From an uncultured Chroococcidiopsis sp. (GTDB lineage: Bacteria > Cyanobacteriota > Cyanobacteriia > Cyanobacteriales > Chroococcidiopsidaceae), in the NCBI GenBank assembly GCA_964248365.1, contig CAXTYC010000012.1, forward strand, positions 1 to 64,000: a stretch of 64,000 bases of DNA. The letters run 5' to 3'. Below are positions 5,489 through 56,634 of this stretch, piece after piece; position 1 is the stretch's first letter, and every line of letters begins with the position of its first letter. The notes beneath the pieces are model-generated. The model saw only the letters and a program-made list of their open reading frames with translations, did no database searches and was not told the DNA's origin. Made by a program: the position numbers and the translations under genes.

Positions 5489-7382
5489 TGCTGTTTGCCT
5501 CCAAAGACTTAATCACTTTCTCTAAATTGTGTTTAATTGGCTCATTCTTGTTCACCTGTAGTTCCCAACCACAGTTACGGGCGGAGAGTATCATCAAATA
5601 TGTGAGCATATACCATTGTCATCTCTGGAGATTCATGTCCCAAATAACGCTGGATGATATGCTGAGGAACCCCTGCATTAATCATGCGAGTGCCAACTGT
5701 ATGCCTGAATTGATGAGATTGAAAATTCCAAAATTTACCCAGGCTATCCTTTATATCAAACTGTTGAGCTAGTCTCTTAATATGATTAATAAAGGAAGTG
5801 CTTGTCATTAGTTTAGGCTCTGGTATAAAGTCATCACTTTTGCCTCTTGTCCTCCCACAAAATAAGTAAGCAAACTCACTTTTTAGCTTTGCTTTGATAT
5901 AAGTCTGTTGTTCTTGGATAACTTCAGCTAACTCATTACTAACTGGCTTAGTATGTTCTTTGCTCATCTTGTACATTTGATATTGAATATACCAGCCGCC
6001 TTTTCCGTTAGACTTTAGGCAATCTAGTTTTAATCTTGTTAGCTCGCCTATTCTAAAACCGCATTCCATATCTACTAAAACCATTCTCATTACTGGTTCT
6101 GGTAAATGATCCAAATGTTGATTAAGCTGTTTCATTACTTCCTCTGGAATCCGATGTAACTCTAAAAAATGAAGGCAACCCTCTTGATCTAAATCTCTCG
6201 TTCGTAGCCAGTAACCCTAATATAGGGTTGCCTTCATTTTTTAAGACGGAAAAACCTGGGAATAAATCGAGGAAGCCTTTGAGTTTCTTTTAACCAATCT
6301 TCTGGTCTGATAAGAGCAGGTTCGACATTGAACCAGTGATTGAGAATTCCTGTTTCAAAGAAGGTTTTGAGAGTTGATATACATTGCGTATGTTGTGAGT
6401 AAGAGTACTTATTGATTTTTAAGTAAGCAAAATATTGAATTATTAAATCTCTATCAATCCCTTCAACTTCTTGTTGATAACTTATCTCTTGTAATAATCT
6501 AGAAAAAACATTAATATAAGATATGCCAATTAAAGTACTAAAAGCTAATCTAGTACTAGAAAGATAAAGAATGAATTTCTAGAAATAATGTTTGAACCCA
6601 GGTTGCTCGATGTACTCAAAGTTAAGTTTATAATGCTTGTGTATGCCATTTTCATATCCTAAATGTTTTGCAGTCCAAACATCATGATTGAAATCAAACT
6701 CTTCTGGAGTCACTAAAATATCTGGTCGCTCAGATCCGACGGCAAACTGTTTATGACAATCTTTACAAATACATTGCTGCTTTCCTGCCTTGCTTAAACC
6801 AAAACGTGTGAAGTTTTTACTATTGCACCACCTACAATTTATATTGTTCAGATAATTTATATCGTCTCGTCCACCAGGGTTAAGAATATATTTGCGCCCA
6901 CAATCTTTACATTTATAAGAAGTTTTACCCCTCGTTCCATTTAATATATAATTCGTAGTGTTACAGTCAGAACATTTAATCTCTCTACCTTCTTTATCTA
7001 CTAAAGGATGAACTCCAAATAACTTTTTGCAATCTTTACAGCTATAGTTCTGTTTTCCATTTTCTGTATTACCTCTTTTTTGCCAATTGCTACTACTGCA
7101 ATGAGGACAATTGATTGCATTATCCCTTTCAGCTATCTTCCATTTTTGATTAGGATAGAATCTATGATTACAAATTTTACAAGTATATCTTTGTTCTCCA
7201 TGTACTGTTAATCCTCTTTTCCCGAGATATTCACTACCACATTTAGGACAGATTACTTCTGTGTTCGGTGGAGCTTTCAATAACGGTTGATATTCTTGCT
7301 CTATATTTGGGTTGTTGCATTCCAATATCTGTAGCTCTAGCGGAGGGTTAAATAAATTATCTGCAATCTTTTTGGTTGTCAT
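5481..7382 (-). pseudogene. Second tyrosine recombinase (Tn554 TnpB-like) with N-terminal zinc ribbons; disrupted
   Basis: GFRIGE, HQFRHT and LGHESPEMTMVY catalytic motifs; TAG at 6579, frameshifts, 109-bp insertion at 6151, apparent internal deletion near 5580. Confidence 0.8.
6151..6259. mobile_element. ~110-bp non-autonomous mini-element, copy 1
   Basis: Interrupts the integrase at RFIP|EEVMK; flanked by GAAT; ends shared with 35399-35509. Confidence 0.75.
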
Positions 7383-8860: not shown

Positions 8861-9505
8861 GTGTCTAATCATACCCAACTTACTCCCCAAAAACCACTCA
8901 TCTTAGGAGTTTCTGGGGCATCTGGTCTAATATATGCTGTACGGGCTTTGAAATTTCTGCTGCAAGCTGACTACGCGATTGAGCTTGTCGCCTCTAAATC
9001 CACATACATGGTTTGGCAATCAGAGCAGAATATTCGTATGCCCGTAGAACCAATTCAACAAGAGCAATTCTGGCGAGTGCAAGCTGGGGTAGAAACTCAT
9101 GGTAAACTACACTGCCATCCTTGGGGCGATGTGGGAGCCAATATCGCTAGTGGTTCTTTCCGCACTCTAGGCATGGTTGTCATGCCATGTAGCATGAGTA
9201 CAGTGGCAAAGCTAGCTAATGGCTTGAGTTCAGACTTACTCGAACGCGCCGCTGATGTCCAGTTAAAAGAAGGACGAAAGCTAGTCATTGTCCCGCGTGA
9301 AACTCCTTTTAGCCTGATTCACCTGCGGAATTTGACAACTTTAGCAGAAGCTGGAGCGAGAATTGTTCCTGCTATTCCAGCTTGGTATCATAATCCTCAA
9401 ACTGTTGAAGATTTAGTTGACTTTGTGGTAGCCCGTACCTTAGATCAACTCGACATTGATTGCATTCCTATCGAACGGTGGCAAGGACGACCTACGGCAC
9501 AATAA
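8861..9505 (+). CDS. ubiX: Flavin prenyltransferase UbiX
   Basis: LGVSGASG, IASGS, PCSMSTVA and RETP motifs. Confidence 0.95.
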   Translation: MSNHTQLTPQKPLILGVSGASGLIYAVRALKFLLQADYAIELVASKSTYMVWQSEQNIRMPVEPIQQEQFWRVQAGVETHGKLHCHPWGDVGANIASGSFRTLGMVVMPCSMSTVAKLANGLSSDLLERAADVQLKEGRKLVIVPRETPFSLIHLRNLTTLAEAGARIVPAIPAWYHNPQTVEDLVDFVVARTLDQLDIDCIPIERWQGRPTAQ

Positions 9506-43471: not shown

Positions 43472-44800
43472 CTAGATATTTGTCAGCAGCCTTGCTTTTG
43501 TGAGAACAAATTTAAGTAAAGTTTCTTCTTGGGAGATGATATCGGCTGTAACTTCCATACCAGATTTGAGGGGATAGGTGCGATCGCCCTTGACTAGAAA
43601 AGGTCTTTCTGGCTCGATGGTTACTTCATAGTAAGGGGCAGCAGCTGCACCCGTCAAAGGTGTAATCGAGTCAGGAGAAATTGCTCTCACAGCACCTCGA
43701 AGTATGCCGTAGTCAGGATAAGGGTAAGCGGAAATTCGCATTTGCACTTTACCCTTTTGACAGTCTGTGACTGCTCGTTGTTCACACACTTGAATTCTGC
43801 TAATATCCTGAGCCGCCACCCGTGCTTTTACCACAAGAGTGGCATTTCCAGGGGCGATTTGGGCAATGGATTGTCCAGCACTCACCACCTGACCTGGGTT
43901 TCGCAAATCTAGTTTAAGAATTTTACCAGCGTCAGGACTACGAAATACAGTTTTTTTCAGATCTGTCTCTACTTGTCGTAGATCTTTTACATTGCGGTTG
44001 ATTTCATTGTGAAGGGCAATTTGACGCTGGAGCAAAACCTCTTGTTCTTTATCCAAGGTGGCTAAGGTGACTTCACCCCTTACCCGTTCTTGAGCAATCC
44101 GTTCTTGGGCGACTGACACAGATGCTACAGTAGGATTTAAGGCAGCTTTTGCGCCTTCGAGTTTGGCTTGCGCTGCAACGAATGCTTGTTCTTTTTCCTT
44201 TATTTGCAGTTGTGGAACAGCTCCTGTGGAAGCCAGTTGGTGATATTGTTCCATCTGCACTTTGGCTAACTCCATAGCCGCTAGAGCTTCTTTTACTTGT
44301 GTGCCAGTTGTAATTTGCCGCTCTTTATATTCTCTTTGATTGCGTTGCAGATCCGCTTGAGCAGAGGCGATATTGTGGTTCATCAAGCTCAGTTCAAAAT
44401 CCCGCTGGTTTTTAAGGGATAGCATCTGAGCATCGATTTGAGCCAGTTGCAATTGACTATTTTGGATATTCCCTGCTAGCTGGTTCTTTTTGGTTTGAAG
44501 TTGAGAATCGTCAATAGTAGCGATCGCATCTCCGGTTTTAACAGAAGAGTTTTCTTTCACCAAGATACGGTTAACCGATCCTGCCGATTCTGCTTGGACT
44601 ATCCGCACTTCTCCGGCTGGACGCACAGTAGCAGCTGCTTTGACTGTGACTTTGTACTGCACAAAAGCAGCCAACGCAAACGCTGCACCCACTGTCCCAA
44701 CTAAAAACAATCCACCTAATGTTGTCCAAAGACTGATCGGGGGGAGAAACTCGTCACTGCGAATTGGGCGAACTAAAGCAGGATTAGTGTCATTAAGCAT
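43472..44800 (-). CDS. HlyD-family membrane fusion protein (type I export adaptor)
   Basis: N-terminal TM, lipoyl halves, coiled coil; AYPYPDYG and GMEVTADI motifs. Confidence 0.92.
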   Translation of the reverse strand: MLNDTNPALVRPIRSDEFLPPISLWTTLGGLFLVGTVGAAFALAAFVQYKVTVKAAATVRPAGEVRIVQAESAGSVNRILVKENSSVKTGDAIATIDDSQLQTKKNQLAGNIQNSQLQLAQIDAQMLSLKNQRDFELSLMNHNIASAQADLQRNQREYKERQITTGTQVKEALAAMELAKVQMEQYHQLASTGAVPQLQIKEKEQAFVAAQAKLEGAKAALNPTVASVSVAQERIAQERVRGEVTLATLDKEQEVLLQRQIALHNEINRNVKDLRQVETDLKKTVFRSPDAGKILKLDLRNPGQVVSAGQSIAQIAPGNATLVVKARVAAQDISRIQVCEQRAVTDCQKGKVQMRISAYPYPDYGILRGAVRAISPDSITPLTGAAAAPYYEVTIEPERPFLVKGDRTYPLKSGMEVTADIISQEETLLKFVLTKARLLTNI

Positions 44801-45434
44801 CAGCTAACAACCTATTATTCTCAACAACTACAACAAACGAGAATTGAGTAGCAAGCAAATTGTCTATTCAAATTTAGTGTAATCTTCAAATTTTCCTATC
44901 TACCCACATAAACCTCAATTTTATCCAATAAGTAATTTTAAACGTAGTTGCCCTACGCATAAGTGGTAACTATTTTTACCTTTTCCAAAAAAAATTTCTT
45001 AACATCCGTATTAATTCTGCCTTAGTGACAGTAATTAGACGATTGTAGCTTCCAGACCATACCGATAAAATCCTCTCTAGCAAAATAGCATTACAACCAC
45101 ATCCTACTCAAAATGTACTTGTATAAATTTATATATTATTATTTTTTTTGTAGCAAATAAATATCAGTACACTCGCATCTTGCTAGATAGGTGGTTGTAG
45201 ATCCGTGTATACTTTGTATGCTGTTAAAATAGAAGCAAATTAAATATTTATTAGTAAAGTTAATATGAGTTAATCTCGGCTTAATATTCTATTAACTTAT
45301 ATTAAGAAGTAGCAATTTAAACTTGATTTGGCTGTTGTTTAATTTATAGTTAATCATTAAGGTAGAAATGTAATTGAAGTAACAATTTAAACCTGCCCCA
45401 AATACCTTAAGTTTGAATAGAAGGAGACTTCACA

Positions 45435-45617
45435 ATGTCTAATAGTTCTGCATTATTTTCTGACTCTGAGAGCTTCATGGGATTTGTTCAAGATTTGTCA
45501 GAACAAGAAGAGCTAGCACTCGCAGGTGGAACAGGCGGTTGTGGCAGCGGCAAGAGCGGCAAGAACAAGAGCAAGAACAAGAACAAGTCTGGCAACTGCG
45601 GCTGCGGCTGTCCCTAA
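45435..45617 (+). CDS. RiPP precursor peptide with double-glycine leader
   Basis: AAGGAG RBS; leader ending DLSEQEELALAGG; core TGGCGSGKSGKNKSKNKNKSGNCGCGCP; neighbours a C39 transporter. Confidence 0.88.
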   Translation: MSNSSALFSDSESFMGFVQDLSEQEELALAGGTGGCGSGKSGKNKSKNKNKSGNCGCGCP

Positions 45618-45718
45618 TCTCTGCCATTGAAACCTTTAATACAGTACTGTAATAGCCATATCTTTTAGCTTAGGTAAATTAATACACCTAGCTTAAGTAG
45701 GCTATGTAGATCAAGAAT

Positions 45719-45764
45719 AGGGTTTTTACCATCGTGCAATACCGATGTTAAGAACCCTTTTTTT
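45719..45764 (+). terminator. Intrinsic terminator after the precursor
   Basis: agggtttttaccatcg-N8-cgatgttaagaaccct followed by a T-run. Confidence 0.65.
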
Positions 45765-45840
45765 GTCAAATTGGAAGTACTCATAGAGAAATTTAGATGT
45801 AAACGAGCTTTTTGAGTAAAGCTTTAAGGAATTCTTGACC

Positions 45841-47040
45841 ATGAGTTTTTTGTTAAGCTCTCAAAATGTTTTAGAATATCTAAATGAAAAAGGGCTGTGT
45901 GACCAAGAGCAACATCTTAGTCAAATCAAAGAGAAAAGCTCTAAAAACTTCAATTTGCTAGTGAGCTTTACTAACGATCGCCACCTGTTAATTAAGCAAG
46001 AACTTCAAGATCGAGAAGGAAAAACTAAGAAATATTTTTTGGATGAATGGGGTATTCATGCTCTGTTACAAAATTTTTCAGAATTAAGCTCTATTTGCTC
46101 AAGAATATCAGAAGCTATTCATTTTGATCCTGAATGTTCAATTATTGTTTTTAATTACCTTATTAACTATTGGGACTTAACCGATTTTTACGCCCAAGAG
46201 CAGATTTTTCCAACAGAAATCGCCTCGTCAATTGGAGCGGCGATCGCTACCATTCATCGTAGTACTATAGACACTGAGCAATACAAAAGCTTTCTAGCTC
46301 AAAGTTGTAAAAAACAGTCGATTGACCGTATTCCTAACTTACTGCGTGGGCTAGAACGAATTGAACCGGAAGTCTTTGGCTCCGTTTGTTTAGATGGAAT
46401 CCAGTTTTTTGTACTTTATCAGCTATATGAGAGTTTGGGAAGTGCGATCGCTGAACTTAACGCTGCTTTCCAACCCTGCTGTTTAACACACAATGACCTG
46501 AAGCTGGATAACATTTTAGTGCATAGAGATTTCATCTCGCGTTACCAGGCTGAGCCTGATAATGATATTTCTAGCATGAATGGCATTGTGCGACTAATTG
46601 ATTGGGAACACAGCAGATGGGGAGATCCCGCCTTTGATTTAGGAATGCTTATCGCCAGCTACCTAAAAATTTGGCTGGGTAGCTTGGTTATCAATGCAGA
46701 TATGGATATTGAGACATCCCTAGCAAGCGCTATAACTCCACTCGAACAAGTCCAACCCTCGATTGTTGCCTTAGCTAGAGCTTATTTCCACCATTTTCCA
46801 GAAATCTTAGAGCGTCGCCCTGATTTTTTCAAACGAGTAATGCAATTTACTGGTTTTGCCTTGATTAACACAATTCAAGCAAAGCTCGAATACCGAGAAA
46901 CTTTCGACAATACAGGTATTTGTATGCTTCAGGTGGCAAAAACTTTGTTATGCCGCCCAGAACAATCAGTCCCAATTGTTTTTGGCACAACAGCATTGGA
47001 ACAATTGGTAAAAGGGGCAAGGGAAAAGGTTAAAGGATGA
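45841..47040 (+). CDS. APH-family kinase (LanK-like)
   Basis: LLIKQE, THNDLKLDNIL, LIDWE and WGDPAFDLG motifs. Confidence 0.85.
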   Translation: MSFLLSSQNVLEYLNEKGLCDQEQHLSQIKEKSSKNFNLLVSFTNDRHLLIKQELQDREGKTKKYFLDEWGIHALLQNFSELSSICSRISEAIHFDPECSIIVFNYLINYWDLTDFYAQEQIFPTEIASSIGAAIATIHRSTIDTEQYKSFLAQSCKKQSIDRIPNLLRGLERIEPEVFGSVCLDGIQFFVLYQLYESLGSAIAELNAAFQPCCLTHNDLKLDNILVHRDFISRYQAEPDNDISSMNGIVRLIDWEHSRWGDPAFDLGMLIASYLKIWLGSLVINADMDIETSLASAITPLEQVQPSIVALARAYFHHFPEILERRPDFFKRVMQFTGFALINTIQAKLEYRETFDNTGICMLQVAKTLLCRPEQSVPIVFGTTALEQLVKGAREKVKG

Positions 47041-47207
47041 AGGATAAAGGATAAAGGTTGTAGCGAGCGCGATCCCGTTGGCGTTAGCCGCACCCGTTGG
47101 GTAGGGGTAGGGTAAAGGGGAAAGAGGTATTGCGGTAAAGGATAAAAATTAAAGGTTGAAACTTCACACTTCATACTTCATACTTCATACTTCATACTTT
47201 TAGTTAT

Positions 47208-48272
47208 ATGCAATTAACCGATTCTCTACCTAATCAACTGCTCGATAGTCTGCAAGATATTGTTAAGATTGAGATTCAATCTAATTTCTGTATTAGCCAT
47301 CCAGATTACGAACCGCTAGAACTTCCGCACGAGGTAGTAACTCGTTTTCAACAACTACCAGGGGAATTCCAGCGTAAGTATCTGAGCCTACAACTGCGGA
47401 ATTTTATATATAGTATCTATTTCACAGGCGACGCACCAGCCGCTAGTATCAATAGCAGTTGCCATTCAGACAGTGCTGTAATCACGCAAAGTTCAGACTT
47501 TTACTGGCAATTACACGCGAATAATTGTGGAGAAGGCTACTTTGATTCGGGCTGGTATATTCTCAAACAAGAGAGTGATGGTAGCCTTGCTGTGCAAAAG
47601 AATGGTTTAACTGTACACATTCAGCCACAGCGCCATCTCCAACCCGAAGCCTGGCTATCCAGTGTAGGCGATACAGTTGCAATCCGAATGCCTCCTAACT
47701 TAGTTGAAACCAAATTCTATATAGCCGTAGGTAATGCAGGAACGGTCAACCTTCATCGTTCAAATCGTCAGATCGAGACAGTATACATTTATTTTAATTT
47801 TACCTGTGAAGGTGCGATCGCACTTATGCGTAGTTTAACAGAGCAACTAAACTCTTTAAAAATTGCGTTTACTTTTAAAGCGCTTTTCGATCCTGCTAAT
47901 TACCCGCGCAACGACTCAGGAGTCCTCTACTTTGAGCGCAGTAATTACAATATTATCCGGCAAATTTTGCAATCTGTCTATGCAGAAAACCGAGCGCATT
48001 TTCTTTCAAACGTTCCCCTATTTACAAAGTTACTAGCACCAGGGCTGGGTTTAGCAGAAAAACCAGAATATAAAGAAACTACTGGGGAAAGATTTGGCTT
48101 GAACCGTTGTCAAATTGTTGCTGATGGCTTGTTAGATGCGTGGGATAATGGCGATCGCACGTCTTTAGGTCGGATAAATGCAATTAGCAAACGCTTTGAC
48201 TCACACTTTATTGAATTGCAGCGTCCCTATTTAAATGCCAATGAAGATATTTACACCCCTATCTATACTTGA
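47208..48272 (+). CDS. HopA1-family protein (LanY-like phospho-Ser/Thr lyase)
   Basis: FDSGW, IYFN, FK....RNDSGVLY, FTKLLAPGLGLAE and FG.NRC motifs; follows the kinase. Confidence 0.8.
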   Translation: MQLTDSLPNQLLDSLQDIVKIEIQSNFCISHPDYEPLELPHEVVTRFQQLPGEFQRKYLSLQLRNFIYSIYFTGDAPAASINSSCHSDSAVITQSSDFYWQLHANNCGEGYFDSGWYILKQESDGSLAVQKNGLTVHIQPQRHLQPEAWLSSVGDTVAIRMPPNLVETKFYIAVGNAGTVNLHRSNRQIETVYIYFNFTCEGAIALMRSLTEQLNSLKIAFTFKALFDPANYPRNDSGVLYFERSNYNIIRQILQSVYAENRAHFLSNVPLFTKLLAPGLGLAEKPEYKETTGERFGLNRCQIVADGLLDAWDNGDRTSLGRINAISKRFDSHFIELQRPYLNANEDIYTPIYT

Positions 48273-49245
48273 CACAGACTGGCTATCTTGTCAATTTTTA
48301 AACACATTTAATCTTTCTTATCATAAAGTTACTTTTTGAAAAATTTCAAAATAATTCTACCATTATCGCCATACAACACCAACTTAAAGAAAATAATGGA
48401 AATCTAACTATACAAATATATAATGTTCAAACTGCCTGCATTTAGTAATCGAACTGTTATTGTGAAGCCATGAGCCACCTGAAAAAATTTATTTTAAGTC
48501 AGTTCAGTCAATTAAAACCTCAACAGTTTAGTACCAGCAAGGAAAGTATAAATTTTACAAGCTTGCTTTTCACTCTCTTGCTGTGAGTGAGGAATAAAAT
48601 TTTGCCAATGGCACTTGTTAGCACTCTAAGGTCAAGAGATGTTATAAATGTGGTTGGCGACGATGATGATAGCTGAGTGTTTAGTCGCTTAGATATCTCA
48701 ATAGTCTCCTTTTCAATTTAAGGTATTTTAGCAGGGAGCTTTCCTTTATCCTTCCTTACTTGTGTAAGGGTTTATTTAGAAAAGTACTCTCTGCTTTTTT
48801 TATTTTCTAAAATATAATAATAGTAACTGTCGTGTGATTAATATAAAAATGTAATTGTATATATTAATACATATAATATCAAAAGCATTATTCTTAACTG
48901 TATTTACAAACGTATAAAAAATGATAATGAATATAGCCGTGCTAACAATTCGTCTACAACAACATGAGAATATATGCATTAGATATCAATTTTATTATTA
49001 CCTAGTGCAAAGCGCTTCCCTCGTTCCCTAGCAATGTATGAACTAGAAGAAAATAAATATTTAATTTTAATAGTAGTTAAATTATTTTACTTTTTGTAGT
49101 AAATAACCACATTCTTTTGTAATATTAATTACAGGGGTTTTCTGGTTGAATGCTGCTGATTTTTGTAAGAGGCATATCAAGTAGTAATTCCTGTTTTTTT
49201 CAAGCTATAAGAATTACGGTATCAAGAAGTATCATTTGAATAACA

Positions 49246-51390
49246 ATGAAACACCGAGTTGTTCTACAGCAGAGTGAAGAAGATTGCGGGGCTGCCTGTC
49301 TTGCTTCTATTGCCAAATATTACGGACGGACTTTTACCTTGAACCGCATTCGAGAAGCGGTAGGTACTGGGCAATTGGGAACTACATTATTGGGCTTGCG
49401 GCGAGGTTCCGAGTCATTGGGTTTTAATGCTCGCTCAGTCAGAGCCGCCCCAGAAGTCTTGAGTAAGATAAATCAAATACCCCTGCCTGCAATCATTCAC
49501 TGGAAGAATAGGCACTGGGTAGTTTTATACGGCAAGCGTGGCAGAAAGTACGTAATTGCTGATCCTGCGGTTGGAATGCGTTATCTGTCCAAAGAGCAGT
49601 TAATCGAAGGTTGGACAGATTGGGTGATGCTTTTGCAAGAGCCTGATTCGATTCGCTTTTTTAGCCAATCAGAGGATAAAGTTGACAACTTTGAGCAATG
49701 GTTCAGACGTTTGTGGATGTACCGAACCATTCTCGCTGAAGCTTTGCTATGCGCGATTGTTATCGGGCTGCTATCTTTAGCTTCTCCATTCCTAATTCAA
49801 ATTCTCACAGATGATGTTTTAATTCGCGGTGATACCCAGTTGTTAGCTGGTGTTGTACTGGCGGTAATAGCGCTCAGCTTAGTGAGAAGAAGTTTGGCGC
49901 TGGTGCAAAATAATTTGATTGCTCATTTTGCTCAACGTTTAGAGTTAGGGCTAATTCTAGAGTTTGGGCAACAAATTCTCCAATTACCTCTGACTTATTA
50001 TGAAGCTCGTCGGAGTGGCGAGATTGTCAGCAGATTACGAGATATCCAAGAAATTAATCGCTTAGTCTCACGAGTCATTGTCAGTTTACCCAGTGAGTTC
50101 TTTATTGCCTTTGTTTCTTTTATTTTTATGGTTTTCTACAGCATAAAACTCACTATAACTGCTGTGTTAATTGCCCTTATTATGACTCTCTCTACTATTA
50201 TATTTCTTCCAGCACTGAGGCAAAAGACTCGTAGCTTATTAGTTTTGGAAGCAGAAAATCAAGGCGTTTTGGTAGAAACTTTTAAGGGAGCATTAACACT
50301 CAAAACCACGAGTGCAGCCCCGTCTTTTTGGGAAGAATTGCAAAGTCGATTTAGTCGGTTAGCAAATCTCACATTTGGTACTATCCAAATCAATATTATT
50401 AATAACACCTTTTCTGCATTAGTTTCTGATATTGGTAGTGTGTGCCTACTTTGGTTCGGTAGTACCTTAGTCATCGGTAAAGAGTTAACTATTGGTCAAT
50501 TGCTTGCGTTTACTAGTCTCAATCGTAATGTTTTGAATTTAATTAGTTCATTAATCGATTTTGTTGATGAATCTGCACGAATACAAACAGCTACCTCAAG
50601 ATTACAAGAAGTTATTACAGCTACACCAGAAACTCAGAATGAGGCTAGAAAACCTTGGGTAAAAATTCCTGCTAATGCTGATATTATTTGTACAAACCTG
50701 ACTTTTCATTACCCAGGTAGACTTGATTTAGTACAAGATTTTTCTTTGACAATTCCAGGTGGTAAGGTAGTCGCTTTGATTGGTAAATCAGGCTGTGGTA
50801 AGAGTACCTTATCTAAATTGATTGCAGGTTTGTATCAAATGCAGTCGGGAAATATTCGGATTGATCGATATAACATCCAAGATTTATCGATTGAATGTCT
50901 TAGACAGCAGGTAGTTCTTGTTCCTCAAGAACCACATTTTTGGAGTCGCACAATTATTGAGAACTTTCGCTTAGGTTCTCCCACTGCAACGTTTGAGCAA
51001 ATTGTCAAAGCTTGTCAAATTGCCCAGGCTGATGAGTTTATTAGTAGACTACCAGAGAAGTATCAAACTGTCTTGGGTGAGTTTGGTACGAATATTTCTG
51101 GAGGACAAAGACAAAGATTAGCGATCGCCCGTGCAATTGTCAACGATCCACCCATACTGATTTTAGATGAATCTACCGCTGGACTCGATCCTGTAAGTGA
51201 AGCACAAGTTTTAAATCAATTATTATACCATCGCCGAGGCAAAACCACAATTTTGATTAGTCACCGTCCCCGCGTGATTAATCAAGCTGATTGGATTGTA
51301 TTACTCAATCAAGGATCGTTGCAAATGCAAGGCTCTTTAGAGTCATTGCGATCGCAACCAGGCGAACATACAGACTTCATCACACCGTAA
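49246..51390 (+). CDS. Peptidase C39-containing ABC transporter (PCAT)
   Basis: QQSEEDCGAACLA, HWVV, IADP; TM domain; GKSGCGKS, ISGGQ, ILILDE. Confidence 0.95.
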   Translation: MKHRVVLQQSEEDCGAACLASIAKYYGRTFTLNRIREAVGTGQLGTTLLGLRRGSESLGFNARSVRAAPEVLSKINQIPLPAIIHWKNRHWVVLYGKRGRKYVIADPAVGMRYLSKEQLIEGWTDWVMLLQEPDSIRFFSQSEDKVDNFEQWFRRLWMYRTILAEALLCAIVIGLLSLASPFLIQILTDDVLIRGDTQLLAGVVLAVIALSLVRRSLALVQNNLIAHFAQRLELGLILEFGQQILQLPLTYYEARRSGEIVSRLRDIQEINRLVSRVIVSLPSEFFIAFVSFIFMVFYSIKLTITAVLIALIMTLSTIIFLPALRQKTRSLLVLEAENQGVLVETFKGALTLKTTSAAPSFWEELQSRFSRLANLTFGTIQINIINNTFSALVSDIGSVCLLWFGSTLVIGKELTIGQLLAFTSLNRNVLNLISSLIDFVDESARIQTATSRLQEVITATPETQNEARKPWVKIPANADIICTNLTFHYPGRLDLVQDFSLTIPGGKVVALIGKSGCGKSTLSKLIAGLYQMQSGNIRIDRYNIQDLSIECLRQQVVLVPQEPHFWSRTIIENFRLGSPTATFEQIVKACQIAQADEFISRLPEKYQTVLGEFGTNISGGQRQRLAIARAIVNDPPILILDESTAGLDPVSEAQVLNQLLYHRRGKTTILISHRPRVINQADWIVLLNQGSLQMQGSLESLRSQPGEHTDFITP

Positions 51391-51746: not shown

Positions 51747-52833
51747 TTGATAAATACAGTTCCCATCACTCCAGATAAACTGCAAGGCTGCTTAGAGACT
51801 TTGTATAATCTTAGACTACCCGCTTTCCTACATGGAGCGCCTGGAATTGGCAAAAGTACCATTATCCGAGACTTTGCTCGTAGTCGGGGGATGGAGTTGA
51901 TTGTATTGATGCTCAGTCAAATTGAGGCGACGGATCTTAGAGGTATTCCCTATCCCGATAAAGAAACACGTACAGTCAGTTGGTTTACACCGGAGTTTTT
52001 ACCACGTCAGAACAAAGCAGGGATAATCTTTTTAGATGAGTTGTCTGGTGCAGAGCCACGCTTGCAGGTAGCGGCTTATCAGCTAATCTTGGATCGGCGT
52101 GTAGGGGAGTACGTGTTACCTGCAGATTGGTGGGTAGTGGGGGCTGGGAATAATGCCTCAGATGGGGCAATTGTATATGAGATGGGGAGTGCGCTAAGCG
52201 ATCGCTTGGTACATTTCAAAGTAGTTCCAGATGCGAAAGCTTGGATCAAATGGGCTTTGGAGAATAGGATCGCATCTTCTGTTATTACGTTTATTCAAGT
52301 CAAACCAGACTATCAAGGGCGCAACTGGTATAGGATTTACCCAATCAGATTATGCCATTAAACCGACACCGCGATCGTGGGAGCGGGTAAGCCAGGTATT
52401 AAAAACAAACCCTGCCAAACAGACTTTAGATTATCTAATTTCCGGCATTGTCGGGGAGGCTACCTGTGCTGAATTTTTTCATGTGCTAGAAGAGTTGCAA
52501 GACTGCCCTAGTGTAGAAACTTTATTACAAGCCGATCAAATTCAACTACTAGAAATCATACCTCGAACAATTCCAGGTTTATATGGTTTAACCTACAGTT
52601 TAATTGCCTATTGTCACAACTTAGATGACTTGAGAAATGCAGCCAGAATTTTAAATACTATAACTCAAATTCAAGATGAATTACCTAGAGCCGAAATTCA
52701 AGCACTAGCATTTGAGTTGTTGATGGAAAAAGCCGACAAATTCAAACTATTATTCAGTTTTGGTAAAGCACCCGAATACCAAGCTTATCGAGAAAGAGCC
52801 AAGCAGATTACTAATCTTTTAAATCACCTGTGA
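51747..52833 (+). pseudogene. MoxR-like AAA+ ATPase split by a frameshift near 52310
   Basis: GAPGIGKS, DLRGIP, IIFLDE and ALSDRL in ORF 1; PTPRSWE in ORF 2. Confidence 0.8.
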
Positions 52834-52934
52834 TTCCTGAGACGATCTAGTTACCAGGTTCAGCCAGGTAACTAGAATATCGAGGCTCCGCCTCAGTAGA
52901 TTATAAACGAATTGATTTTACTAGGATTTCATAT

Positions 52935-53855
52935 ATGACACATCAACCTATAAGCTTGCATGAAATTGACTTTAGCCAACCTGATCGTGAGTTTATCTAC
53001 AAAGGACAGACTTATCAAATTAAAGAATACTCTGATATTTGTTATGTTAAAAAGAATAAATCTCACCCTTGGGAGTTTATTTATGTATTTTGTTCGCACT
53101 CGGCAAGTCTTATAAACAAACAAAATTATTCATCTACTCTTGAAGAAATAATTTTAAAAAAGGCAGACAAACTTTTACGTTGTGTGGAGTATGAAAACAT
53201 CATTTTTGGCTTTAGCACCAATAACAAAGGATGTTATTTTTCAATTGAAGATGAATATTGGACTTGGTTCAACTGGAAAGCTCCTAGACACATGAGTATA
53301 GATGATCTATTAGAGAAACCCTATGATTTCTTTATTGATAAAGCAAAAACCATCTATTATACAGAGATTCCTCTCATAGAAGATAAAGTTGATGATTATT
53401 CTTATAGGAGCAATACAGCTAAACCTATTGAGTTTGTATGTGGCTCTGAATCAGAGCTAGAAAGACTAACGCAACTGGCTGCATTTATATTACCTGAATT
53501 TAAACCTCTATTCGAGCGCTACTCCAGCTTCAAAGTAATCTATGAGTCAGAAAATGCCTATCAGTGTGGCGGTATTACTGAAGAAATAGACACCCCAGAC
53601 TGGTATTATGACATTGTTCTTTCCAAACAAGCGCAGAAGTTATTCGATCTAATCTTTGAATACAACTATTTTACTGGACTTCAATGGGAGTACAACGATG
53701 GTCATGGATACACAGGCTACGATCCCCTTTCATACACTATTGAAATTAGCTTACAAGCTCCTTCACAACACGAAAGATTAGAAGCGGTGCTGGAATTACA
53801 AAGTTGGTTAGAAGGTAAACTTCCCGATGAGGAGATTAGAGCCTATTTTGAGTAG
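52935..53855 (+). CDS. Hypothetical protein
   Basis: 306-aa acidic, aromatic-rich ORF between the AAA and vWA genes. Confidence 0.7.
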   Translation: MTHQPISLHEIDFSQPDREFIYKGQTYQIKEYSDICYVKKNKSHPWEFIYVFCSHSASLINKQNYSSTLEEIILKKADKLLRCVEYENIIFGFSTNNKGCYFSIEDEYWTWFNWKAPRHMSIDDLLEKPYDFFIDKAKTIYYTEIPLIEDKVDDYSYRSNTAKPIEFVCGSESELERLTQLAAFILPEFKPLFERYSSFKVIYESENAYQCGGITEEIDTPDWYYDIVLSKQAQKLFDLIFEYNYFTGLQWEYNDGHGYTGYDPLSYTIEISLQAPSQHERLEAVLELQSWLEGKLPDEEIRAYFE

Positions 53856-54009
53856 CGGCTGATACTGATTTACTATGGTGATGCTATACATCAGATTTCT
53901 GGCTTTAAAAGCTACCTAAATCCTCTTTTTTAAAGGGGTAAGTTTAAGAATATATTACCTACTTTGCCAGAGTTGATATTTTAGAGTATCTGTAGCAATC
54001 TGCAATAAA

Positions 54010-55215
54010 ATGATAAAAATATTAGATAATTCTATCAAAGATTTGAAGGATAAATTAAATACCATAGTGCGATATTGCATCACTAAATCACCAGGTTTTG
54101 CCAGTATCGCTTTGTGGATTCCCTACCATATTTATTCAGAAGATTGTGATCTAATCGCCTATACAGATGGAAAATTTATCCGAGTAGGGCAAAGATTTTT
54201 TGATTATCAGCCAGCCCAACAAGCATTCATTGTAATTCATGAAGTCATGCACGTTGCACTTAGACACGTTGGGCGATCGCCCAAAAATTACAATCCCCTA
54301 TGGAACATCGCCACAGATGCGGTAATCAATCAAGCTTTGCGTCACATTGCCTGGTTAAGTTGTCCTGCTGATGCGATTGTGTTAGAAAATCTAATCGATG
54401 AGGAAACCCTCAAATTACATCCTGCTTATCAATGGACATCGGAACAAGTTTATAATTACTTACTTAAGCATCCAGATCGTTGCACTGCAACCGTATTCAT
54501 GGCAGACTTGCGTACGCTGGGTGAATTTGGGGAAGGCACAGATAACCCCAGTCACAGCCGTGAAATTCAAGATCAGATTTGGAGAAGTAGACTAATTCGG
54601 GCCTTGGCAGGCGATCGCGCAGGCGGCATTTTTCGTCATCTACAACAAGATTTTCCCACAACCAAAGCGCCTTGGCAACACTACCTACGGCAATACCTAA
54701 CCCAGGCTATGTTACCAGAAAGAGAAACGAACTGGTCTAAACCCAGCCGTCGCTCTGTTAGCTTACTCGATCAAAACATTGAAATATTTGAACCTGCAAC
54801 CCGTCCTAAACCAGGACTCAAACGCGCTGGTATAGTAATTGATACTTCAGGTTCGATTGATGACAATCTGCTGCATCAATTTGTCACCCACGTCCAAACG
54901 ATCCAAACTCAGACTGGTTGCGAAGTTTATCTCATTTCAGCCGACGCTGACGTGCAAACCGAAGATCTAATCTGCAGCCACGATCCAAGTTTAATTACCC
55001 TAATCCAACGCAAACAAATTCAACTCAAAGGTGGAGGCGGTACTGATTTTAGACCTGCACTCGACACTCTCAAATCCAAGTCTATTAGCGTATGTGTCTA
55101 CCTTACAGATTTAATGGGTACTTTCCCAGATCATCCCCCTAATTATGATGTGGTTTGGGCTAGCACATCACCCGATCAATCTGCCCCATTTGGTCGAGTT
55201 ATTGTGATTGAGTAG
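54010..55215 (+). CDS. DUF2201-like metallopeptidase-vWA protein
   Basis: AYTDG, HEVMH, WNIATDAVIN; MIDAS DTSGS, GGGGTDF, YLTD. Confidence 0.85.
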   Translation: MIKILDNSIKDLKDKLNTIVRYCITKSPGFASIALWIPYHIYSEDCDLIAYTDGKFIRVGQRFFDYQPAQQAFIVIHEVMHVALRHVGRSPKNYNPLWNIATDAVINQALRHIAWLSCPADAIVLENLIDEETLKLHPAYQWTSEQVYNYLLKHPDRCTATVFMADLRTLGEFGEGTDNPSHSREIQDQIWRSRLIRALAGDRAGGIFRHLQQDFPTTKAPWQHYLRQYLTQAMLPERETNWSKPSRRSVSLLDQNIEIFEPATRPKPGLKRAGIVIDTSGSIDDNLLHQFVTHVQTIQTQTGCEVYLISADADVQTEDLICSHDPSLITLIQRKQIQLKGGGGTDFRPALDTLKSKSISVCVYLTDLMGTFPDHPPNYDVVWASTSPDQSAPFGRVIVIE

Positions 55216-55411
55216 GGGCGGGTTCACCAAAAATCTACAGTTTCATACAAATATCTCAAATCAACCCGCCCGTACAAAATATTCGTGCAAGAGGTCTATT
55301 GAATTAATTTTAACCCAGGCGGGAATCTTGCTTATCTTTATTTGTACGATGGTGGGCAATGCCCTTTTCAACAATACGATGGTGGGCATGGGTAGCATAC
55401 AATGGTATAAC

Positions 55412-55834
55412 ATGGACATTTTATTTCATTGTGAATCGAGCGCCCGTAAATTTGGCGGAATCCCAGAAGATTATATTCCGATCCACAAATTTTTCGATCA
55501 GTCCAAGTTATTCGTTGCTGATTGGAGACATGGCGCCTTATTGCATCACACTTTAGGCGTATCTTTGTGCGAACAAATGTTTGGAGATTTTTACACTCGC
55601 CCCTCAGATGGGCAAAAGATTAGCACTCGTTTAATTGCAGAACAGCACGTATTAGAAGATTTGGGGGCATTACCCGATCCCGCCTGGTATATTCGAGAAA
55701 TGCCGATCCGTCGTTGGATGAATGGTATGACACCTGAACAACGTCGCCGGACGCAAAAATTGATTTTAGAAGACAATCAAAAAGAACTAGAACGAGACTA
55801 TCAAATTTATCTAAGCGAGAATGCGCAAATTTGA
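55412..55834 (+). CDS. DUF6915-like protein
   Basis: HCESSARKFGG.PEDY..IH.FFDQSK...D.RH..LLHH..G...AEQHVLEDLG. Confidence 0.75.
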   Translation: MDILFHCESSARKFGGIPEDYIPIHKFFDQSKLFVADWRHGALLHHTLGVSLCEQMFGDFYTRPSDGQKISTRLIAEQHVLEDLGALPDPAWYIREMPIRRWMNGMTPEQRRRTQKLILEDNQKELERDYQIYLSENAQI

Positions 55835-55917
55835 AGCTGAGGAATAAATATCTAGGTTCTGCTCAGCATAAGCTACAGCATAAGTCTCTCCTATGCCAAA
55901 TCAATAGAGCGATCGCG

Positions 55918-56127
55918 TCAATCGTTTTGAGACGATTGCGATGCTTCTTGTTTATCCCGCTCTACCTGAGCGGCGATCGCTTTACGTAGCCATTCGGTAC
56001 GATTAGGCAGCGATCGCACGTATGCATCTATATCCAGTGGCAGTTTCACTGAAACCGATCTACTTGCTACTGGCTCGTCATAAACTTGTGTAAATTTATT
56101 TTTCGGGTTAGGATTGCCCCTGCCCAT
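55918..56127 (-). CDS. Small ribbon-helix-helix-like DNA-binding protein, copy 1
   Basis: SVSVKLPLDIDAYVRSLPNRTEWLRKAI; GAGG RBS. Confidence 0.7.
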   Translation of the reverse strand: MGRGNPNPKNKFTQVYDEPVASRSVSVKLPLDIDAYVRSLPNRTEWLRKAIAAQVERDKQEASQSSQND

Positions 56128-56282
56128 GTTTCCTCGTTTTCCTGTAAAATAGAAACATTGACTCTTTTGTTGCCCCACGCCGATATCTGAACCCCGTCCC
56201 CTGGCAAAAGCCTCAGATGTCAGTTTACACCCAAATGGGAGGCTATAAGTATTCTACCCAATCTGACACTTTTGCGATCGCG

Positions 56283-56492
56283 TCACTCGTTTTGAGACGA
56301 TTGCGATGCTTCGGTTTTATCTCGCTCTACCTGAGCGGCGATTGCTTTACGCAGCCATTCGGTTTTATTGGGCAGCGATCGCACATACTCATCGTGAGAA
56401 ATTGGTACTCGCACAGTTAGAGGCTGTTCTGCTAATAATTCCTCTCCTACTCGCTTTGAATATAGTAATGGATTTCCACCCTTTCTTGCCAT
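56283..56492 (-). CDS. Small ribbon-helix-helix-like DNA-binding protein, copy 2
   Basis: LTVRVPISHDEYVRSLPNKTEWLRKAI; paralogue of the previous gene. Confidence 0.7.
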   Translation of the reverse strand: MARKGGNPLLYSKRVGEELLAEQPLTVRVPISHDEYVRSLPNKTEWLRKAIAAQVERDKTEASQSSQNE

Positions 56493-56634
56493 TTTTTGAT
56501 GTATACTTCTATATAATACGGTAAAATTTGGGAACAAAGCCAGAGGACAGGCAGCAAACCAAAAATCCTCTGACAGACCTCAAACAGACCGTATACGTTT
56601 GTTAGGCAGTTATATACATTTGTTTGGAGGCTAT

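Follow-up and report, generated by a model that had tools for sequence, protein, structure and literature searches.

Gene content of the locus

The locus studied here is a five-gene cluster within a 64,000-nucleotide stretch of DNA (the window) from contig CAXTYC010000012.1 of an uncultured Chroococcidiopsis sp., which an earlier note, made from the sequence alone, had taken for a minimal class V lanthipeptide-like cluster encoding a peptide that is made by ribosomes and modified after translation (RiPP). The five genes that it named, for a divergent HlyD protein, a double-Gly precursor, an APH kinase, a HopA1 protein and a C39 transporter, are all real (matches to PF13437, PF01636, PF17914 and C39), and each open reading frame (ORF) was confirmed at its coordinates with its frame intact (Table 1). 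The PF17914 and PF01636 genes adjoin each other, and in the transporter Cys14, His90, Asp106 and the ATPase motifs are all present. Protein comparison with the fetched loci revealed no further gene in the 974-bp gap before the transporter or the 635-bp gap before the precursor, which bears out the statement that LanC, LanM, a flavin decarboxylase or other extra enzymes are missing from the locus; LanD, LanX, methyltransferase and phosphatase genes are likewise absent from it, and no immunity gene is evident there. LanM gave no match with three queries (tblastn at E ≤ 1e-5) in the 99.97%-complete genome, and a genome search for LanC with PF05147 was also negative, but its positive controls likewise went undetected. 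The two PF02441 flavoproteins of the genome are UbiX-like and CoaBC-like. The earlier description of the locus as a RiPP cluster of LanK/LanY type that has type I export but lacks a cyclase holds.

Table 1. Features of the cluster, in window coordinates.
Feature	Coordinates	Strand	Evidence and remarks
HlyD-family membrane fusion protein, 442 aa	43472-44800	-	PF13437 E 6e-14, TIGR01843; divergently transcribed
Intergenic region, AT-rich, divergent, presumed promoters	44801-45434	.	Without protein match
Precursor, 60 aa	45435-45617	+	Leader profile 33.1 bits; AGGAG ribosome-binding site 8 nt upstream
LanK-type APH-fold Ser/Thr kinase	45835/45841-47040	+	PF01636 E 5e-8; NF038156; LxmK fold match
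HopA1/LanY-fold protein, 354 aa	47208-48272	+	PF17914 E 1e-49; LxmY fold match
AT-rich gap without recognisable gene	48273-49245	.	No protein match; no second copy in genome
Peptidase-containing ABC transporter, 714 aa	49246-51390	+	C39, ABC membrane and ABC ATPase domains; short type

The precursor comprises a 32-residue acidic double-Gly leader ending in ELALAGG, scored in Table 1 with a profile built from family loci, and a 28-residue core, TGGCGSGKSGKNKSKNKNKSGNCGCGCP (6 Lys, 4 Ser, 1 Thr, 4 Cys, 4 Asn and 8 Gly; 2659 Da, isoelectric point 9.6), whose C-terminal residue is Pro, not Cys. Cleavage would occur at the first GG; a second GG lies three residues further on. The precursor had no match at or above 0.9 in the protein atlas.

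An intact kinase next to a HopA1 protein without the catalytic arginine

The kinase, which starts at TTG 45835 or ATG 45841, has its catalytic residues K54, H219-N-D221, N226 and D256-W-E258 intact; its model finds LxmK as best fold match (9dk3_A, E 8e-14), and its score on the LxmK model NF038156 (86.6 bits) is under the cut-off of 315. The best fold match of the modelled HopA1 protein is LxmY (9dk3_B; Z 23.9, root-mean-square deviation 3.3, 293 residues aligned, 18% identity). In the LanY site described for CaoY, Lys219 is the base, Arg187 activates the carbonyl, Arg229 and His57 serve the leaving phosphate and Tyr236 is conserved (PMC9486802). With the family profile and with an Arg-bearing homolog, the family motif R-I-Y-F-N aligns with R-I-F-L-H of LxmY, so that the family Arg falls on LxmY R189 (chain numbering; the further LxmY residues are K221, R231 and Y238), and the spacing of the Arg, Lys, Arg and Tyr (32, 10 and 7 residues) equals that of CaoY residues 187, 219, 229 and 236, CaoY being compared by spacing and not aligned.

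At the position of this catalytic Arg, the HopA1 protein of the locus has Tyr193, a replacement overlooked in the earlier note, which took the protein for a lyase. K224, R234 and Y241 are kept, and further departures from the family are Q167E, N228D, E285K and S295R. Its four nearest homologs (70-87% identity) share Tyr193, have open frames and keep K224, R234 and Y241. A single-sequence alignment with the strand shifted by two residues had put Thr191 opposite the LxmY Arg, and was dropped because the family profile and the Arg-bearing homolog place Tyr193 there; neither register brings an Arg to the catalytic position. Arg295 as a compensating residue was also set aside: only 7 of 23 Arg-less homologs have it, and an 86%-identical relative does not.

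Without the catalytic Arg, dehydration and thioether formation become less likely, and of the dehydro-, thioether- or phospho-peptide proposed earlier it is the phospho-peptide that gains. In the CaoKY system, the R187A exchange in CaoY nearly abolished elimination and left mostly phosphorylated peptide, CaoK alone gives phosphorylated peptide, and the solubility of CaoK depends on CaoY; moreover, a Lys beside the phosphosite hinders elimination, for which repulsion between the substrate Lys and R187/K219 was proposed (PMC9486802).

A modelled complex and a proposed mechanism

The complex model of the kinase and the HopA1 protein scored 0.78, compared with 0.00 for the best control (the mark applied to such models is reached by 116 of 157 solved pairs and 2 of 215 mismatched pairs), with at least 77% of contacts shared between runs and a partner pLDDT (predicted local distance difference test) of at least 83. 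The modelled interface is formed mainly by residues 173-195 of the kinase and 132-138 and 159-168 of the partner, the same region as that described for LxmKY; since a like complex has already been solved, the model shows likeness, not binding. Natural kinase-HopA1 fusions of 772-830 residues were found in four loci (L184, L192, L208, L219). Three of these four adjoin Arg-rich, protamine-like cores.

On balance, we lean towards a reading in which the kinase, held by a lyase-fold partner that is itself largely inactive, would poly-phosphorylate the Lys/Ser core, which would then be exported. Kinase and HopA1-fold protein would form an LxmKY-like heterodimer, as modelled; by analogy with CaoK and LxmK, the kinase would bind the acidic leader and phosphorylate Ser/Thr of the core with ATP. 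Lacking the Arg that activates the phosphoserine carbonyl, the partner would eliminate little or no phosphate and would act as a stabilising, substrate-holding subunit. That the kinase needs a partner for solubility, and that Lys next to a phosphosite hinders elimination, may explain why a disarmed partner persists and in four loci forms a single protein with the kinase. The transporter, as is usual for its family, would cut at the double Gly and export the core together with HlyD, and the locus would do the first half of what a class V dehydratase does. The product is predicted to be a zwitterionic peptide of Lys and phosphoSer, short and disordered and heavier than the unmodified 2659 Da by up to 400 Da, whose Cys-rich tail may form disulfides or bind metal. 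Many genera that carry such loci (Chamaesiphon, Pleurocapsa, Calothrix, Rivularia) grow on surfaces, and by analogy the product may, we suggest tentatively, serve as an extracellular surface, matrix or metal/mineral-binding peptide rather than as a lantibiotic.

Core type tracks the catalytic arginine

Among the 120 best HopA1 homologs, of which the named ones are all cyanobacterial, 97 have the Arg and 23 do not. Loci were gathered by alignment (the 80 best of 576 in genomes, and 55 in metagenomes), with two DNA patterns written to leave out Arg at that position (11 and 50 loci) and from six regions of relatives. Dropping proteins identical over their last 150 residues left 187 loci: 114 Arg-bearing, 55 Arg-less (this locus included) and 18 mixed, with one protein of each kind. 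The patterns fixed some neighbouring columns and not K224, R234, Y241 or S295, except for K224 in the 11-locus pattern, which favours retention of K224; the Arg-bearing sample is biased toward close matches; and two cut-off tandem loci (L129, L197) are counted as Arg-less for cores and in the tandem group for residues.

Precursors (leader profile score of at least 20, core of at least 8 residues) were detected in 93 Arg-bearing, 38 Arg-less and 18 mixed loci. The median hydrophobic fraction is 0.45 for the 233 cores from Arg-bearing loci and 0.11 for the 52 from Arg-less loci, and the median core net charge is 0 and +6 respectively. Basic non-hydrophobic cores (Lys plus Arg making up 20% or more, hydrophobic residues no more than 20%) are present in 20 of 38 Arg-less loci, this one included, compared to 1 of 93 Arg-bearing and none of 18 mixed loci, and Ser/Thr adjoin Lys/Arg in 182 of 382 cases in Arg-less cores versus 159 of 1324 in Arg-bearing ones. 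The Arg-less cores include pure alternations of Lys-Ser (L168), Arg-Ser (L162) and Arg-Thr (L167), besides Lys-Thr, Gly-rich and poly-Ser types; in 13 of 49 at least two Cys fall within the final 12 residues, and 24 of 49 are free of Cys.

In a reverse, peptide-first test, genomes were scanned for Lys-Ser repeats that follow the end of a leader. This gave 42 matches, 8 from named cyanobacteria, 7 of them with a kinase and a HopA1 gene in the locus. All 7 kinase/HopA1 loci lack the Arg, 5 are new, and 6 have the layout of this locus (divergent HlyD, precursor, kinase, HopA1, simple transporter), a gene order that is hence not due to chance.

The charge of these cores also bears on what phosphorylation might be for. 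It could be a temporary mask that shields the producer's nucleic acids and membranes from a protamine-like polycation and allows its export, the phosphates being removed outside to release a cationic peptide with antimicrobial or surface-binding activity. If left unmodified, cores such as the Arg-Ser repeat of L162, the Arg-Thr repeat of L167 and the Arg-rich ones next to the fusions would carry a strong positive charge (median net charge +6), and the locus has no evident immunity gene, but neither does it have a phosphatase, and the acidic poly-Ser cores would need no masking; we consider this improbable. The acidic poly-Ser cores belong to two Arg-less loci (L199, L204). Seven further Arg-less loci, mostly from Chamaesiphon, have long Gly-rich repeat cores (L178, L179, L188, L195, L196, L206, L210).

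Active-site residues, accessory genes and phylogeny of the Arg-less branch

Among proteins longer than 280 residues, the Arg-bearing ones (n = 130) keep K224 in 127, R234 in 130, Y241 in 128 and S295 in 128 cases, whereas those from Arg-less loci with a precursor (n = 39) keep them in 23, 30, 4 and 11 cases respectively. The 23 Arg-less proteins among the 120 best homologs, which were not chosen by pattern, keep R234 in 17, Y241 in 13 and Q167 in 1, compared to 97 of 97 each for the Arg-bearing ones. Q167 is changed to Glu or Asp in 25 of 39 Arg-less proteins and N228 to Asp in 23 of 39. By contrast with their partners, the kinases of Arg-less loci with a precursor have K54, D221, N226, D256 and E258 invariant (36 of 36). 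The HopA1-to-kinase distance ratio is 1.20 for the Arg-less and 1.01 for the Arg-bearing branch, and overall net charge of the kinase and HopA1 proteins does not differ between the two (-11/-12 versus -12/-14).

Gene content differs as well. In loci of at least 9 kb, peptidyl-prolyl isomerase (PPIase), aldo-keto reductase, radical SAM and LanM genes occur in 71, 39, 17 and 9 of 92 Arg-bearing loci, but in 1, 0, 0 and 0 of 28 Arg-less loci with a precursor, and the short-type transporter in 1 of 92 and 10 of 28 respectively. The minimal gene layout is therefore typical of the Arg-less branch, in agreement with the stripped-down cyanobacterial branch that had been envisaged.

In an unrooted tree built from 125 proteins (one third of the Arg-only loci and all others over 280 residues), Arg-bearing proteins form one side (support of 96 in the Shimodaira-Hasegawa-like approximate likelihood ratio test) and the Arg label needs 2 changes. 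Given this shape, the association of Arg and core defines a lineage and does not amount to many independent trials. One protein with Ser at the site and a Lys-Ser core (L211) nests among Arg-bearing proteins with support 86 on a long branch, and we do not claim a second origin.

Two further kinds of locus were seen in this sample. Tandem loci (such as L027, L030, L049, L177 and L183) carry, beside a canonical kinase/HopA1 pair, a second pair in which the active sites of both proteins have changed: in the kinase D221 is replaced by Asn in 16 of 18 cases and K223 by Gln in 12 of 18, and in the lyase Glu replaces K224 in 12 of 20. These second pairs form one clade and are possibly LanX-like pseudo-enzyme pairs. 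Ten loci (L186, L190, L194, L202, L205, L207, L209, L213, L216, L226), mostly from heterocyst-forming genera, encode a kinase of about 412 residues and an Arg-less HopA1 protein in which K224 is often Gln, with no precursor or transporter detected nearby.

A disarmed, re-tuned or decaying lyase

The same residue counts can be read in another way. The lyase might be active but re-tuned, having lost its Arg and gained acidic residues nearby so as to accept a polycationic core, the Lys/Arg side chains of which would take the place of the Arg; the product would be a dehydro-peptide that closes Cys-Dha (dehydroalanine) thioethers or Lys-Dha (lysinoalanine) links without a cyclase. We give this a minor but real share of plausibility, both for the enzyme and for its product, and several observations that favour it weigh against a partner inactive in catalysis. 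K224, the catalytic base, persists in all 23 close Arg-less homologs and in 12 of 14 Arg-less loci with a short transporter, although other groups lose it, so that the fold does not need it; the HopA1 protein studied here retains K224 and, together with its four nearest relatives, R234 and Y241; it is among the least degenerate of the Arg-less branch, which makes its own case less certain than that of the branch. CaoY-R187A still yielded some dehydrated species (PMC9486802). The acidic changes at Q167 and N228 look like a directed shift rather than random decay, repulsion between a substrate Lys and R187/K219 has been proposed (PMC9486802), and class Va rings can close without a cyclase (PMC12291118), the core here having 4 Cys and 5 Ser/Thr. 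Retention of K224 and the acidic shift would, however, equally fit a binding site for a Lys/phosphoSer chain. Also to be set against the phosphorylated product are the thresholds for a basic core, chosen after the sequences had been seen; the 18 of 38 Arg-less loci that miss them (Gly-rich, Asn-rich or poly-Ser), some with few Ser/Thr; and the mutual relatedness of the Arg-less proteins, for which one origin is possible, so that locus counts are not independent.

Variation of the remaining site favours lost catalysis. Within the short-transporter group Y241 is kept in only 3 of 14 loci and R234 in 10 of 14, and K224 itself is lost in 16 of 39 proteins across the Arg-less branch. In addition, 24 of 49 Arg-less cores have no Cys, and one such locus has its HopA1 protein cut to 237 residues, though that cluster looks broken.

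That the cluster is simply a decaying class V-like one, the loss of Arg being a lesion and nothing functional being made, seems very unlikely. Its distribution is patchy: a HopA1 match of any kind was found in 16 of 61 relatives, and in five same-genus genomes an Hsp20-like gene (named from its sequence), not the cluster, lies upstream of argB, so that occupation of this site by the cluster varies. Damage is seen in two related loci, and the second kinase/HopA1 locus of this genome is in pieces. Against decay, all five ORFs here are intact, the four relatives at 70-87% identity share Tyr193 in open frames, the catalytic residues of the kinase are invariant, and the layout recurs across several genera. 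Loss of the Arg thus appears to mark a branch, not a lesion.

Relation to known systems

The cluster type is already known in silico, as a cyanobacterial family that is still uncharacterised. Eyles et al. (2021; PMC8153245) describe it as Family 1A, with 570 peptides from 183 cyanobacterial clusters with a conserved double-Gly leader and a variable core, and no product is given in the text available. This locus shares with it the cyanobacterial origin, the kinase and HopA1 pair, the double-Gly leader and the variable core; its short precursor ahead of the enzymes has the leader that characterises the family, and similar leaders occur in supplement rows for network 1. That supplement tabulates Lys-Ser and Arg-Ser peptides, several in network 1 and some like peptides in networks 103 and 118. 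Its Lys-Ser precursors include those of the cultured strains Chamaesiphon minutus PCC 6605, Stanieria cyanosphaera PCC 7437 and Pleurocapsa sp. CCALA 161. Unlike what is seen here, the Family 1A text consulted makes no remark on loss of the lyase residue or on a link to basic cores, and most members of this type in our sample differ from this locus in keeping the Arg, with hydrophobic cores and PPIase, reductase, radical SAM or LanM genes. In Liang et al. (2022; PMC9486802), cyanobacterial precursors are classed as type-B LanA. The open-access literature searched, which excludes the Eyles supplementary PDF and the primary LxmKY paper, yielded neither a characterised cyanobacterial product nor a description of the Arg-less branch. 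That the family had been described bioinformatically in those two papers escaped the earlier note.

Likeness to class V lanthipeptide systems is one of fold. LxmKY (PDB 9DK1-9DK3) and CaoKY are the best fold match of both proteins, with the equivalents of K219, R229 and Y236 kept, but identity is 17-18%, the catalytic Arg and LanD, LanX, LanC and methyltransferase are absent here, and this locus differs also in its double-Gly leader with C39 export and its Lys/Ser-repeat core. Class Va is defined by a LanD flavin decarboxylase and LanX in the cluster (PMC12291118); judged from its genes, this locus has an intact LanK but neither the full Arg/Lys/Arg/Tyr set nor LanD and LanX, and it has no LanC cyclase, which excludes it from class Vb. 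By the published definition this is not a class V lanthipeptide cluster, and the missing cyclase, which the earlier note had singled out, is unremarkable in itself because class Va rings can close without one.

Phosphorylated RiPPs are described as rare in the sources available. The closest precedent is phospeptin (EmbA/EmbM), whose maturase has mutated elimination residues, so that the finished product is a linear, poly-phosphorylated peptide (Paoli et al., 2022; PMC9259500). As described there, EmbM is a single LanM-type polypeptide that di-phosphorylates Thr, whereas the system here, read from genes alone, is of the two-subunit LanK/LanY type, with an APH/LxmK-type kinase and basic repeats. 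By description, the locus can also be likened to EbfG1-4/PteB of Synechococcus elongatus (PMC4997328), small double-Gly proteins that are exported by a peptidase-transporter and promote biofilm; unlike here, the abstract names no kinase or lyase. The predicted product resembles diatom silaffin-1A, Lys-modified, phosphorylated on all Ser, zwitterionic and self-assembling (PMC4557024), in composition only: silaffin-1A is eukaryotic, made by unrelated enzymes, has polyamine-modified Lys and shares no homology with this system.

Cyanobacteria hold a large share of HopA1/kinase clusters, for which no product was found in the literature searched. The present analysis divides these clusters in two, one branch bearing the Arg and having hydrophobic cores, the other lacking it and having basic repeat cores. 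If the kinase indeed acts with a disarmed partner, this would be a second route from dehydratase to pure kinase, and would provide a leader-directed kinase for densely phosphorylated peptides as well as a candidate class of cyanobacterial matrix or mineral-binding peptides. A bolder and doubtful extension is that the branch makes an undescribed bacterial RiPP class, secreted poly-phosphorylated (Lys/Arg-phosphoSer/Thr)n peptides built by a class V kinase and a pseudo-lyase, which surface-dwelling cyanobacteria might use as silaffin-type analogues for adhesion, sheath and mineral/metal binding. Should the lyase instead be re-tuned, it would work without an Arg thought necessary.

Further observations in the genome and in related loci

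A promoter scan of the divergent intergenic region gave 6 promoter-like sites, not above chance (4.2 ± 2.2 in shuffles). A UbiX-family flavin prenyltransferase, not LanD, lies 35 kb away at window 8894-9451. Downstream of the transporter (window 51747-56537) are an AAA_5 ATPase apparently split over overlapping frames (51747-52361 and 52231-52833), a DUF2201 VWA-like gene, a DUF6915 gene and two small ORFs that resemble each other (55918-56178 and 56283-56537); the region has the look of a mobile island.

Two related loci are damaged. In L267 (7633-10126), the HopA1 protein cut to 237 residues runs into a transporter missing its first 110 residues, and in L259 an in-frame stop lies within the precursor leader (near 6000-6150).

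The second kinase/HopA1 locus of the same genome extends across two contig ends (L001 1-2417 and L002 1-2691; contigs C38 and C24). There the HopA1 protein has the Arg and the precursor cores are hydrophobic, but the kinase, the aldo-keto reductase and the PPIase are all fragmented, through either decay or assembly error. Elsewhere (L003 7208-11787; contig C48), a paralogous transporter (61% identity) and HlyD (44%) lie by a 151-residue ORF with an acidic double-Gly leader, a putative larger exported cargo, with no kinase or HopA1 gene.

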